A stretch of DNA of 64,000 bases from an uncultured delta proteobacterium (GTDB lineage Bacteria; Desulfobacterota; Binatia; Binatales; Binataceae). The DNA is taken from positions 192,001 through 256,000 of the forward strand of contig CAWJET010000002.1 in assembly GCA_963842085.1 (NCBI GenBank). Direction: 5' to 3'. The translations under genes and the position numbers were made by a program. Positions 1 to 2,509 of this stretch are shown in pieces (the stretch's first letter is position 1; every line of letters begins with the position of its first letter). A model generated the notes under the pieces. That model ran no database searches. It had not been told where the DNA came from and saw only the letters and a program-made list of their open reading frames with translations.

Positions 1-100
1 AGTACTCAGAAAATGTGCTGTTCTCGAAATTACCCGACCCAGAAGCGGGCATCGCGAGAATCCCTAGGAGCGCTACCAGCAGTCCTTTCGTGAAATTCAT
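1..100 (-). CDS. Secreted/periplasmic protein, N-terminal part only (runs off window edge); candidate immunity protein for the DPBB tip
   Basis: ATG at 100-98, 13 nt after the TGA of the 114-638 ORF. Translates MNFTKGLLVALLGILAMPASGSGNFENSTFLST..., a Sec-type signal peptide (K, hydrophobic core, A-S-G). Not in the ORF track because it is truncated. Confidence 0.65.
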   Translation of the reverse strand, partial: MNFTKGLLVALLGILAMPASGSGNFENSTFSEY

Positions 101-113
101 ATCGCTGATTCTC

Positions 114-638
114 TCATTGCAGAGGAGGCTGAGGCCCTGCGGGAAGCGTAACCGTTACGGGGATGTGCCCCTCACTCAGACTGCCGCCTGTAAGCGCCTT
201 GAACGCACCGGGCGACAGGTCTATGATTCGATTCTTTCCCTTCGCGTACGGCCCGTGATCGATAACTTTCACCGTAATGGTTTTCGGAACGTTAGAACCA
301 GGCTTCAGATAGGTAACATTAGCTTCTGTTCCGCACGGGAAGGTTCCGTTCGGACCGACTATCTTCGGACTCATCGCAGCGGTGAAGCCCTCAGGGTCTG
401 AGTACACGTAATTGGAGCAACCCGTGTGCCCTGTAGGGTAGTAAAAGCTAGCCTCGCCGCTGATGGTCATCGGGTCCGCAGACCCTTGCGCGGCAGAAGC
501 CTCGTCCGGGATCAGACCATCCTGAATTCCCAAGATGACCGGATACAGCGGGTGGCGGCCGTGGCGCAACTGGCGCGGAATCGGAGGGGCACTGCTGCCG
601 CCAAACAACCAGTCGAAGATGTCCTGGAAACAATTCAC
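114..638 (-). CDS. Orphan polymorphic-toxin C-terminal cassette 2: conserved junction + RlpA-like double-psi beta-barrel (lytic transglycosylase/expansin-like) domain
   Basis: RlpA/DPBB motifs GEASFY..TAA..PCGT..VT..VKVIDHGPY..RIIDLSPGAF..L..G..V.V. Preceded by the junction peptide shared with 1015-1629. Possible GTG at 638, just after the upstream stop; may be a start-less fragment. Confidence 0.7.
   Translation of the reverse strand: MNCFQDIFDWLFGGSSAPPIPRQLRHGRHPLYPVILGIQDGLIPDEASAAQGSADPMTISGEASFYYPTGHTGCSNYVYSDPEGFTAAMSPKIVGPNGTFPCGTEANVTYLKPGSNVPKTITVKVIDHGPYAKGKNRIIDLSPGAFKALTGGSLSEGHIPVTVTLPAGPQPPLQ
507..587 (-). repeat. Cassette junction repeat, copy 2 (encodes PPIPRQLRHGRHPLYPVILGIQDGLIP)
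   Basis: Direct repeat of 1381-1461. 553-589 is identical to 1427-1463 over 37 bp. The two peptides match at 24/27 aa. Confidence 0.95.
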
Positions 639-640
639 CG

Positions 641-1000
641 TTAGCCGCCGTCTCTGAGGAACGCCTGGATCCCAAACACAGTTGCGGCAGCCAGAGAGAT
701 AACCGCAGCGACCAGCAGCCCGAGGCCGATCATCGCATCCGCCAGGAAGGGGATTATCGTGATGGGGTGCCACGTGACCAACACGGACGCTGCTGTCAGC
801 AGGATCGCAAGGACCATAAGCCCGAAGGGCCTTCGGCCTGTGCGCCATCCCGCACCCAATACCACGAGCGCGCCCACGGCTGGGAGGCCGTAATCCTGGA
901 GGATCCAGCCAGCGGTCTGGGGAAAAAGTGCCCACAATACCGCAAGTACGGTCGCAATAGGAAAAATGATCCAAAATACCCGCTGTTTATAGGATCGCAT
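641..1000 (-). CDS. Small multi-pass membrane protein (~4 TM, 119 aa); candidate immunity protein for cassette 1
   Basis: GGAGGAG SD upstream of ATG at 1000. MRSYKQRVFWIIFPIATVLAVLWALFP... is hydrophobic throughout. Lies immediately after the stop of the 1015-1629 tip. Confidence 0.7.
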   Translation of the reverse strand: MRSYKQRVFWIIFPIATVLAVLWALFPQTAGWILQDYGLPAVGALVVLGAGWRTGRRPFGLMVLAILLTAASVLVTWHPITIIPFLADAMIGLGLLVAAVISLAAATVFGIQAFLRDGG

Positions 1001-1014
1001 CGGATGCTCCTCCA

Positions 1015-1629
1015 TCAATTCCCGTGCCCGCAATTGAGGAACTGCGCAACGCAGTTCGCATAGCGAGCTGCGGTGATACCGCCGCAAACGGTGAGAGCTC
1101 CGCTCACTGCAAAACCGGTTGCGCCTTCACAGCCGGCCAAGGTCTCGGGGAATGCCGGTCCGGTAGCCGCAGATATAGGGAAGCATCCGGCAGCGAGCCC
1201 CGCGCCGAATTCCAGAACACGCTTTGCGCACTCAGGGTTCGCGAAGACGGGCTTCACGCAGGCTTCGTATTGCTCAAAACACATAGCCTGGTTATCGCTA
1301 TTGGGCTTGGGCTGCAGCGGGGGGTCAGGACAAAGGTCGGGGTCTCCGCAGACTGGTGGCTTGCCCGCGGACTCCATGGTCGGAATCAGGCCGTCGGAAA
1401 AACCCAAAATCAGCGGATACAGTGGATGGCGGCCGTGGCGCAACTGGCGCGGAATCGGAGGGGTGTCGCTGCCGCCCCCGCCGAAGAGGTCGTCGAACAA
1501 CTCAAACAGCCCTTCCGCTATCAACCCTATAACAACGGCCGGCGTCGCAACACCTAGAGAAACGCCTTCAGCACCGACTGGAAATGCGTTGAAAGCGCTG
1601 ATGGCCCCGGCCGTTAGGATTTTACTACA
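1015..1629 (-). CDS. Orphan polymorphic-toxin C-terminal cassette 1: hydrophobic pre-junction + junction + Cys-rich hydrophobic tip (probably a start-less fragment)
   Basis: The frame stays open from the SDR stop (CSKILTAGAISAFNAFPVGAEGVSLGVATPAVVIGLIAEGLFELFDDLFGG...), with no canonical start before TTG at 1524. It carries the junction motif and then a 10-Cys Gly/Ala-rich tip. Confidence 0.65.
   Translation of the reverse strand, partial: CSKILTAGAISAFNAFPVGAEGVSLGVATPAVVIGLIAEGLFELFDDLFGGGGSDTPPIPRQLRHGRHPLYPLILGFSDGLIPTMESAGKPPVCGDPDLCPDPPLQPKPNSDNQAMCFEQYEACVKPVFANPECAKRVLEFGAGLAAGCFPISAATGPAFPETLAGCEGATGFAVSGALTVCGGITAARYANCVAQFLNCGHGN
1381..1461 (-). repeat. Cassette junction repeat, copy 1 (encodes PPIPRQLRHGRHPLYPLILGFSDGLIP)
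   Basis: Direct repeat of 507-587 at an 874-bp offset. Confidence 0.95.
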
Positions 1630-1630
1630 C

Positions 1631-2509
1631 CTACGATTTCGTCTTGTGCTCCGGTTTGCCGCCGCCCATGAGCGTGCCCGCGCCCTGCATCAGCCGGGTG
1701 CCGACGCTCAGCAGCGCGTCGGTGACGCCGGGGAACAGCGACGCGAGTTTTTCCGCGACCGCGGCGCCGGGAGGAACGTCCACCTCGGTCAGCCCGAACG
1801 CGGCCGCGGCCAGCACCGCCCACGTCACCCATCGCGGCGGCATCGCCGCCAACGCCGACACGGCATGGAGCGGATCGTGCTTGAGCGCGTTGCGCGCCAT
1901 CGGCGTGTCGATCACCCCGGGCATCACGAGCGATACCTTGATGCCGGTATTGAACAACTCGACGCGCAGTGCTTCGGTCAGTCCCACCAGCGCAAACTTG
2001 GTCGAGCTGTAGCCGCCGAGCGGGCTGACTCCCCGGCGTCCCGCCAGCGACGAGATGTTCACGATGTTGCCCGACCTGGCTTTGCGCATCACGGGCAGCA
2101 CGGCTTGCATCGCGTGGAGTGCGCCGAAGACATTTACCGCCATCATCTTTTCGAGGTCTTCGGGGCGCATCTGCTCGACCGTATCGGTGATCAGCAATCC
2201 CGCCGAGTTGATCAGGATGTCGAGTTTGCCGAAGGCTTCCTTGACCTGCTCTACCGCCCAGAACACGCGCGCGCGATCGGTCACGTCGCAATCGAGCGCG
2301 AGCGCCTTGCCGCCGGCCTTGTTGATTTTGTCCGCGAGTTCGTCAAGCTGCGCGCGCCGGCGCGCGAGCAGCGCAACCTGCGCGCCCTGTTGGCCAAAGG
2401 CGAGCGCGACGTCGTGGCCGATGCCACTCGAGGCGCCGGTTATGACCACCGATTTGTCGAAGAAGTAACCGCGCACCGGTCCTTTGGATTGCCGCTTGGG
2501 TTCGCTCAT
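1631..2509 (-). CDS. Short-chain dehydrogenase/reductase (SDR)
   Basis: TGASSGIG, NSAG, NISS and YSSTK motifs; GAGG SD before ATG 2509. Confidence 0.93.
   Translation of the reverse strand: MSEPKRQSKGPVRGYFFDKSVVITGASSGIGHDVALAFGQQGAQVALLARRRAQLDELADKINKAGGKALALDCDVTDRARVFWAVEQVKEAFGKLDILINSAGLLITDTVEQMRPEDLEKMMAVNVFGALHAMQAVLPVMRKARSGNIVNISSLAGRRGVSPLGGYSSTKFALVGLTEALRVELFNTGIKVSLVMPGVIDTPMARNALKHDPLHAVSALAAMPPRWVTWAVLAAAAFGLTEVDVPPGAAVAEKLASLFPGVTDALLSVGTRLMQGAGTLMGGGKPEHKTKS

Follow-up and report, generated by a model that had tools for sequence, protein, structure and literature searches.

The variable C-terminal tips of polymorphic toxins are a proven source of new biochemical activities and, to our knowledge, almost all of those characterised so far are either enzymes or hydrophobic pore formers. 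Among these systems, the Rhs/WapA toxins have been described together with orphan cassettes, each made of a C-terminal (CT) tip and its immunity gene (PMC3150448; PMC3967940; for S. suis WapA see PMC12704120), while membrane depolarisation has been reported for Tse5-CT of P. aeruginosa (PMC10684867) and for the CdiA-CT(EC93) ionophores of contact-dependent growth inhibition (CDI), whose immunity protein CdiI is an integral membrane protein (PMC11630599). Disulfide-stapled helix-loop-helix peptides are known from plants as alpha-hairpinins (PMC11591084; PMC7191063). These papers, like the others mentioned below, are used for those parts of their text that were available to us. In mitochondria, the small Tims and the CHCH proteins are hairpins with twin CX3C or CX9C motifs. 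The subject of this work is a short gene, tip 1, and the membrane-protein gene that follows it, located at the beginning of a 64,000-nucleotide (nt) stretch of DNA (hereafter the window) from an uncultured delta proteobacterium of the Binataceae (Desulfobacterota; Binatia; assembly GCA_963842085.1, contig CAWJET010000002.1, positions 192,001 to 256,000 of the forward strand). The system belongs to a type already described, the Rhs polymorphic toxins that come with immunity genes and orphan cassettes. What is new is the tip family, unnamed and extremely rare, with what is very probably a disulfide ladder of several rungs, together with its regular pairing with very small membrane proteins and a non-canonical scaffold.

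A Mirror-Symmetric Cysteine Pattern in an Rhs Tip

Tip 1 contains ten Cys residues (59, 65, 82, 89, 99, 114, 132, 147, 158 and 165), separated in order by 5, 16, 6, 9, 14, 17, 14, 10 and 6 residues. The initial annotation of this DNA had described the last eight as a nearly palindromic series (x6-x9-x14-x17-x14-x10-x6) around a Gly/Ala-rich core; re-reading of the open reading frame (ORF) reproduced the spacing exactly, and the core is present in its translation. The C-x5-C pair noted upstream of the series is also present, but it is not a part of the tip, since it belongs to the conserved pre-toxin module discussed below, where it has the consensus CGDPxxC and recurs in 10 of the 30 listed family members. 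Another gene caller starts tip 1 at a second TTG, giving a protein of 161 residues (P0002), and no Pfam or NCBIfam family matches it. Two chance tests, both designed after the pattern had been seen, indicate how unusual the symmetry is: when the first and last Cys were kept in place and the other six were distributed randomly, a mirror symmetry as strong as that of tip 1 (asymmetry of at most 1) was obtained in 28 of 114,959 accepted placements, while among the 365 runs of eight consecutive Cys found genome-wide in 29,652 stop-to-stop ORFs of at least 80 residues (six frames), an asymmetry of at most 2 was reached by only two, tip 1 and one unrelated small lipoprotein. The helical phasing of both arms of tip 1 is matched by ~0.3% of random Cys placements. 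The lipoprotein, a predicted product of 75 residues, lies outside the window (G000:C2 ~291005-291232, minus strand; L035 106-333) and has the lipobox LFAAGC and a perfectly palindromic eight-Cys spacing (x6-x3-x6-x9-x6-x3-x6), with no Pfam family or PDB relative.

The region that carries the last eight Cys, here called the ladder domain, has five homologues. A phmmer search of 1.84 billion representatives returned only three proteins, namely tip 1 itself, P0003 (47% identity, the same pre-toxin motif and a degenerate C-terminus) and P0004, which begins at the end of an Rhs core (...NNPATLTDPSGL) and passes directly into the ladder. Two further copies are found in the genome G540 and one in G062. 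In fact, a pattern scan of the genome and metagenome contig collections gave no match to the domain, and these three were found by later profile searches of genomes. At the level of the class, strong matches were obtained in two of 401 sampled genomes (the source genome, G000, and G540, the latter with E 1.1e-15 and 4.5e-8), ten further matches at E 0.001-0.009, six of which contain stop codons, being treated as noise; at the level of the phylum, the domain was found in two of 401 sampled genomes (the source genome and G062, E 4.2e-5); and at the level of the order in one of 165, the source genome itself. G540 gene A (G540-A) encodes a canonical Rhs protein of 841 residues with YD repeats and a TIGR03696 (Rhs_assc_core) match of 58.8 bits (cut-off 32.5), which stops at residue 742 and is followed by ...TALTDPSGL and then by the ladder. 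Gene B (G540-B) is a 362-residue orphan that matches the same core at 85.9 bits and whose ladder has diverged further, and G062, from another family of the phylum, has a 214-residue Rhs-end fragment with a ladder. The N-terminal boundary of the domain was set from P0004 and G540 gene A, in which the ladder begins directly after DPSGL. In G540 gene A, P0004 and the G062 fragment, the domain thus follows the core and closes the Rhs/YD-repeat protein, a position that identifies it, as far as sequence goes, as a genuine Rhs C-terminal toxin tip. Moreover, because G540 and P0004 have a canonical core and tip 1 a non-canonical pre-toxin module, one and the same domain is used on two different Rhs scaffolds, and it therefore has the modularity expected of a toxin tip.

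From a structural perspective, the homologues are the most informative. Six pairs of Cys columns have positions that add up to 246-247 (82/165, 89/158, 99/147, 110/136, 114/132 and 118/128) and are centred on an invariant G122-P123. In the alignment of tip 1, P0003, P0004, G540-A and G540-B (G062 was left out), the outer rungs 82/165, 89/158 and 99/147 are Cys in all the complete sequences, and at each of the inner rungs both partners are always gained or lost together: 110/136 is C/C in P0004, G540-A and G540-B and L/T in tip 1 and P0003, 114/132 is C/C in all but G540-B (A/F), and 118/128 is C/C in all but tip 1 (S/T). The relatives, too, have a palindromic Cys spacing, which is 6-10-10-3-3-9-3-3-10-10-6 in P0004, 6-10-10-3-3-9-3-4-10-10-6 in G540-A, 6-10-10-7-10-7-10-10-6 in G540-B and 10-10-7-9-7-10-10 in G062. 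The nested pairing in an antiparallel hairpin, first claimed from the pattern in tip 1, is thus supported, because in the homologues a rung Cys never appears or disappears without its symmetric partner.

The same data bear on the nature of the arms. Steps of 4, 7, 10/11 and 15 residues between Cys agree with a helix, and the arm steps of 4, 4, 11, 10 and 7 keep the rungs on one face of an alpha-helix (coherence 0.79 and 0.77); odd steps, we infer, would not suit a beta-hairpin. The structure prediction called for by the initial annotation was made with AlphaFold2 from a five-sequence alignment and is all-helical, with helices at 80-95, 97-119, 122-147 and 152-168 that are broken at P97, at the turn and at G148-G149, P97 and G148-G149 being opposite each other in the ladder. 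The claimed helical character is accordingly supported by the Cys steps and by a four-helix model broken at the kinks that the ladder predicts, although its confidence is low (pLDDT 66.2) and the model was read for its helices. The expected search for a known fold of tip 1 came back empty: with this low-confidence model, Foldseek against the PDB gave no match at E <= 0.001 and the best hit of VIA-align wide (2kjg, Z 5.9) was within the noise for helical models; a PDB profile search gave nothing below E 0.7, and the best score in the ESM Atlas, 0.82, was at chance level. We regard a helical hairpin with nested disulfides as very probable.

A Small Membrane Protein as Probable Partner

The membrane-protein gene starts 14 nt after the stop codon of tip 1. 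About four transmembrane (TM) segments had been ascribed to its product, and the 119-residue protein does have about four hydrophobic segments; on our reading, its positive loop charges would fit an N-in/C-in four-helix topology. Only one relative (P0026, 82% identity) was found among 5.8 billion cluster representatives, and none in a scan of the genome contig collection. The protein has no Pfam or NCBIfam family, and the ESM Atlas returned only generic four-helix membrane models for it.

A small polytopic membrane protein is encoded 10-23 nt downstream in all four ladder loci with known context: 119 residues and 4 TM segments for tip 1 (14 nt), 123 residues and 4 TM segments for G540-A (23 nt), 64 residues and 2 TM segments for G540-B (10 nt), here followed by a further 2-TM protein of 58 residues, and 116 residues and 4 TM segments for G062 (18 nt). 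P0003, P0004 and P0026 are on JGI contigs of 972, 1314 and 1806 nt, respectively, and none of them enters the neighbourhood counts. This constant position in homologous loci speaks for the earlier proposal that the membrane protein is the cognate partner of the tip, and the two genes most likely form a toxin-tip/immunity module.

The Pre-Toxin Module and Its Parent Proteins

The N-terminal part of tip 1 is the remnant of a module whose motif, LFDDLFGG..PPxPRQL(R/L)HGRHPLYPxILGxxDGLIP, defines a family of Rhs proteins. The long members of this family, here called the parents, have 1301-1329 residues and carry an N-terminal signal peptide, DUF6531 and RHS/YD repeats, followed by a Gly/Ser-rich linker, a hydrophobic glycine-zipper-like segment, the motif and a tip that varies strongly and has 102-150 residues; one of them is named Candidatus Binataceae by NCBI. 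The 30 family members with the motif have dissimilar tips of 78-150 residues, one of which, in a parent, is PLA2-like (23.3 bits, cut-off 23.9). In the metagenome and genome loci, each tip is directly followed by a different small ORF, encoding a membrane, HEAT or TPR, or CPBP-like protein. Tips so varied, each with its own small downstream ORF, therefore represent a polymorphic toxin/immunity layout.

The scaffold itself departs from the canonical one. In 13 long parents, the 230 residues that precede the pre-toxin motif contain no DPxG[hydrophobic] motif, and none of the three long parents scanned matches TIGR03696, while the G540 Rhs proteins do. Where Rhs proteins have, at the position of the first aspartate, the canonical RFxSxDPxG, the parents read RSLSE(A/T)G. 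In Tse5, the protease residues are D1141 and D1164 (PMC10684867). It is a speculation that the parent family may free its tips by another route, perhaps at the conserved PRQLRHGRHPLYP segment. An invariant PRQL(R/L)HGRHPLY precedes the tip in the parents P0011-P0024, L024 981-4946 and L027 2857-6846, and this segment, the Gly/Ser linker and the zipper-like segment may together be an alternative release or translocation module.

Mirror-symmetric Cys are also present in other tips of this family, in P0014 (5-7-3-11-3-7-5), L032 (10-18-14-18-10), P0023/L025 (14-11-14) and L034 (3-11-10-0-3-9-3-10-10-3), as well as in P0012/P0020/P0005, all of them without detectable similarity to tip 1. Three other tips of the family with ladder-like spacing also have small membrane partners, of 138 residues in L022/L033, 59 in L032 and 74 in L034. 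Kinship with tip 1 was considered for several of these tips and rejected: hhalign gave a probability of 0.3% for tip 1 (A2) and the P0012/P0020/P0005 group; BLASTP gave E 0.02 for L034 (E 1.8 with our own hidden Markov model, HMM), E 1.4 for L032 and E 0.58 for L022; and with the HMM run over 56,473 ORFs only the self-match was significant. Because hhalign, BLASTP and the HMM are all weak, a shared architecture and not a kinship is claimed. The mirror-symmetric spacing in these dissimilar tips suggests that the toxins of the pre-toxin family make repeated use of hairpins with disulfide ladders.

An Orphan Cassette in a Strain-Variable Island

The homology of tip 1 to the parents (e.g., to the hydrophobic segment of P0011 and P0014) continues in frame for ~27 codons upstream of its TTG. 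The pre-toxin motif, represented by the first 48 residues of tip 1, occurs three times in the source genome, which is 100% complete in two contigs, and always at this locus; the genome has no match to RHS_repeat. The parent P0013 is matched in the genome only by its residues 1001-1298, again all at this locus, with residues 1145-1298 matching at tip 1. A full-length parent rhs gene was not found in the genome, and the gene upstream of tip 1 is an SDR gene. Tip 1 is thus an orphan 3' cassette, because the parent homology precedes any start codon and a full-length parent is lacking.

On the minus strand, the order of the genes is SDR gene, tip 1, 4-TM protein, tip 2, a 154-residue signal-peptide protein, an Rhs-end fragment with tip 3, and a CPBP/Rce1-like protease (Table 1). 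Tip 2 has a GTG start 2 nt after the stop of the membrane-protein gene, without a clear Shine-Dalgarno sequence, and the signal-peptide protein starts 13 nt after tip 2; the two are probably a peptidoglycan-directed toxin and its periplasmic immunity protein. Tip 3, to the left of the window (L007 14462-15492; G000:C2 190462-191492), corresponds to parent residues ~1001-1227 at the end of an Rhs gene, in which a frameshift separates ...FYSPQ from a Gly-rich segment. The next gene encodes a CPBP/Rce1-like membrane protease (PF02517, E 9e-12), and this pairing of tip and CPBP protein occurs in the metagenome locus L023 as well.

The whole array is an island. In contigs of relatives from the same soils, ~90% identical in the flanks, the GNAT-like gene is joined to the SDR gene, skipping 4303-4306 bases (junction from L007 13351/13354 to 17658, with 37-39 other bases between). 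The GC content of the island falls to 52-57%, and GC at third codon positions is 0.59-0.68 in five island genes (tip 2 left out) vs 0.79-0.87 in three flanking genes. Assemblies of the same strain are interrupted at the three pre-toxin repeats. Arrays consisting only of orphans, which keep parent residues from ~1000 onward, occur in four loci of metagenome-assembled genomes (L031-L034). In G540, a REP-associated tyrosine transposase-like gene (L048, G540:C14, 6843-7826; NF047646, 66 bits, below the cut-off of 80) separates the main Rhs gene and its immunity gene from the orphan cassettes downstream. The practical reading of the locus is that the island was acquired and holds immunity genes and silent toxin spares.

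Table 1. Features of the tip 1 locus, in coordinates of the window.
Feature	Position	Strand	Description
Tip 1 ORF	1015-1524	-	169 residues from TTG, stop codon 1015-1017; pre-toxin remnant and Cys-ladder domain
Cys-ladder toxin domain	1018-1287	-	Residues 80-169; proposed rungs C82-C165, C89-C158, C99-C147, C114-C132; turn G122-P123-A124
Pre-toxin module remnant	1291-1524	-	LFDDLFGG..PPIPRQLRHGRHPLYPLILGFSDGLIP at ~1381-1461; CGDPDLC pair at 1330-1350; PPLQ
Upstream in-frame homology to parents (hydrophobic segment)	1525-1605	-	No ATG/GTG/TTG; mark of an orphan 3' cassette
Membrane protein, putative cognate immunity protein	641-1000	-	119 residues, ATG start, ~4 TM segments
Shine-Dalgarno sequence of the membrane-protein gene	1007-1013	-	GGAGGAG, directly behind the tip 1 stop codon
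Tip 2	114-638	-	Same pre-toxin motif; DPBB (RlpA/expansin-like) tip, PF03330 E 7e-8
154-residue signal-peptide protein, 5' end	1-100	-	Rest to the left of the window (L007 15636-16100); likely partner of tip 2
Strain-variable island, part in the window	1-1657	.	Whole island 4.3 kb, G000:C2 189355-193657 (L007 13355-17657); three tips and partners

How the Tip May Act

According to the proposed mechanism, the parent protein would leave the cell via Sec, and the tip would fold in an oxidising compartment as a kinked antiparallel alpha-helical hairpin with 4-6 nested disulfides. From the periplasmic side, it would act on or in the cytoplasmic membrane of the target cell, as a pore, as an ionophore or by blocking a membrane protein, and the cognate membrane protein would neutralise it at the membrane. 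In the present genome, the useful product would probably be the immunity protein, with its strong ribosome-binding site, while tip 1 would be a spare, kept silent, which recombination could place on a full-length rhs gene. Four DsbA-like thioredoxin-fold proteins are encoded above the cut-off in this genome, in which no match was found to VKOR or to the type VI secretion protein VipB/TssC (PF05943). Apart from the exact target, the chain as a whole, that is, an orphan Rhs tip cassette kept with its immunity gene and encoding a stapled hairpin, is probably correct.

The target is less certain. The inner half of the hairpin (residues ~100-147) is apolar and rich in small residues, and arm 2 has a stripe of small residues opposite the Cys (G131, G134, S141, T145, G148/149, A152 and A156). 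Action at the membrane is proposed because of this apolar inner half and because the partners are embedded in the membrane with very short loops; we regard the membrane as a plausible target, held with slightly less than even confidence. A link of tip 1 to bacteriocin-like membrane-active domains, which the initial annotation had drawn, was not borne out by any relation of family, sequence or fold (Pfam, NCBIfam, ESM Atlas, PDB and, with the low-confidence model, Foldseek and VIA-align).

Several observations speak against parts of this chain. The AlphaFold2 model, besides its low pLDDT, has a pTM of 0.44 and yields limits of helices without Cys-Cys distances, and the homologues number only five, P0003 being degenerate at the C-terminus. 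The partner of tip 1 is not detectably similar to that of G540-A or to that of L022, so that the pairing consists of position and type only, although the immunity proteins of ionophoric CDI toxins are likewise reported to be very polymorphic (PMC11630599). Furthermore, among the nine non-ladder tips whose context is known, three also have a polytopic partner (CPBP-like in two, a protein of 194 residues in one) and the other six have none. In these counts, which are given without a test since the two classes were set up only once the data had been seen and related tips are not independent, L025 (where the contig ends) and the truncated fourth tip of L031 were left out, and L022/L033, L024/L030, and L027/L028 with the first L031 tip were each counted as one. 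The best 19-residue Kyte-Doolittle mean of the domain is 1.39, below the TM threshold of 1.6, and the domain is slightly acidic (net charge -2), with a charged outer face on arm 1; with such hydropathy and charge, a soluble periplasmic protein therefore fits equally well. Finally, a Sec-exported Rhs protein would still have to cross the outer membrane of a target cell.

The last points lead to a possible, if less favoured, alternative, in which the same module and hairpin act as a soluble periplasmic toxin that binds or blocks a target in the envelope, such as a lipid-linked precursor or the periplasmic domain of a membrane machine, with no insertion into the bilayer; the membrane protein would then protect, with the same doubtful standing, by trapping the toxin at the surface of the membrane or by screening the target from it. 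Beyond the net charge, the charged arm and the subthreshold hydropathy, this would suit the multiple disulfides, appropriate to a stable soluble binder, and the fact that other tips on the same scaffold are envelope enzymes (DPBB, PLA2-like). It does not suit the inner half of both arms, apolar and Gly/Ala-rich, nor the outside of arm 2, which has few polar residues, and polytopic partners with very short loops in all four loci would offer little soluble surface for binding. A different alternative concerns expression: tip 1 may never be translated here and may be inactive in this organism, with selection acting only on the immunity genes of the island, against neighbours that have full-length toxins. 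We consider this an evenly balanced matter. The homology region contains no start codon, only TTG starts are available, the first without a properly spaced Shine-Dalgarno sequence, there is neither a signal peptide nor a parent gene, and the neighbouring tip 3 is frameshifted; similar arrays of orphans only exist in other genomes (L031-L034), and in one of the soil runs that contain this locus, a contig shows the pre-toxin segment in other surroundings (loose end at L007 17520). On the other hand, the frame of 169 codons is intact with all eight ladder Cys kept. Moreover, dead cargo in this strain would not touch the function of the domain and is compatible with the stapled-hairpin tip proposed above.

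Two further explanations are far less probable. The N-terminal LFELFDDLFGG of tip 1 superficially resembles a double-glycine leader, as its consensus is commonly given, and the Gly-rich segment of tip 3 weakly matches Gly-zipper_Omp (E 0.038) and Bacteriocin_IIc (E 0.4), so that a stand-alone class II-type bacteriocin with a leader cut by an ABC exporter could be considered. However, the same stretch is internal to Rhs proteins of 1300 residues, with conservation continuing for ~45 residues beyond the GG, tip 1 has no Pfam bacteriocin match, no peptidase-ABC exporter ORF was seen in the island or its flanks, and the ladder also follows the canonical DPSGL Rhs end, which has no such leader. This reading is close to refuted. 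Binding of a metal by the Cys, as zinc, an iron-sulfur cluster or in the manner of metallothionein, with no disulfides, is very improbable as well. It would account for the high Cys content, and Vanabin2, a metal-binding protein that is helical and rich in disulfides, appears, at Z 4.0, among fold matches at noise level. However, CxxC and CxxH motifs are absent from tip 1, whose ladder Cys are 6-17 residues apart, the symmetric gain and loss of pairs fits covalent pairing, the signal peptides of the parents mean that the domain folds outside the cytoplasm, and the genome encodes the four DsbA-like proteins.

If the stapled hairpin is membrane-active, it would provide a compact and very stable antibacterial scaffold with a ready-made specific antidote, and the paired gain and loss of rungs would make the ladder domain a natural experiment in disulfide engineering. 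The parent scaffold, from Binatia-like soil bacteria, appears to free its tips without the canonical Rhs protease motif, which is a separate mechanistic question. For this genome, the meaning is modest, since on this reading the acquired island would bring it immunity genes and toxin spares that stay silent. In a wider and rather doubtful reading, the ladder tips and the unrelated-looking tips with palindromic Cys would form an undescribed class of bacterial weapons, long alpha-hairpins with 2-6 nested disulfides, each opposed by a miniature polytopic immunity protein of its own (59-138 residues), attacking the cytoplasmic membrane from the periplasmic side and carried by non-canonical Sec-exported Rhs proteins in which the aspartyl-protease plug is replaced by a glycine-zipper and PRQLRHGRHPLYP module for release or translocation.

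Comparison With Known Systems

Searches of the literature on cysteine-rich or disulfide-bonded Rhs tips and on orphan or pore-forming Rhs toxins found no such tip described, and neither did a search on Binatota or Binatia with Rhs, in which the 10 best-ranked of 333 papers contain no Binatota or Binatia term; the words "cysteine-rich" and "disulfide" are both absent from the bulk of the main text of the toxin catalogue of Zhang et al. 2012 (PMC3482391). The general plan is nonetheless that of Rhs/WapA: the scaffold has YD repeats and ends in a variable tip, the immunity gene follows immediately, spare cassettes of tip and immunity gene retain a piece of the conserved 3' region and, as in WapA, the parents have a Sec signal peptide and DUF6531. 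Unlike in Rhs/WapA and the orphan cassettes of Salmonella and E. coli, no main rhs gene is found here upstream or elsewhere in the genome. The parents also differ in lacking TIGR03696 (none of three scanned) and DPxG[hydrophobic] (none of 13 long parents), and in having a Gly/Ser linker, a hydrophobic Gly-zipper-like segment and the PRQLRHGRHPLYP motif, while the ladder domain differs in having no named family.

Like Tse5-CT and CdiA-CT(EC93), tip 1 is a small, Gly/Ala-rich C-terminal tip of non-enzymatic appearance, and its partner is, as theirs, a small integral membrane protein of highly variable sequence. The logic of tip 1 and its partner would be comparable to that of Tse5-CT/Tsi5 or CdiA-CT(EC93)/CdiI. 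The toxins themselves are not alike: there is no similarity of sequence or, with the low-confidence model, of fold, and tip 1 is less hydrophobic and is predicted to be cross-linked. For the CDI ionophores, the predicted structure is a bundle of five helices that has a Gly-zipper and lacks a disulfide ladder (PMC11630599), and the available text of the Tse5 paper does not mention Cys (PMC10684867).

In its proposed form, with antiparallel helices joined by nested disulfides, the ladder domain is closer to the alpha-hairpinins and the small Tims. The resemblance extends to an exact twin CX3C core (C-x3-C...x9...C-x3-C) in P0003, P0004 and G540-A, whereas tip 1 has no CX3C pairs. Unlike these eukaryotic hairpins, to which it has no sequence relation and which have two disulfides in 30-40 residues, the domain is bacterial, belongs to an Rhs toxin and would have 4-6 rungs over ~85 residues, with both arms kinked.

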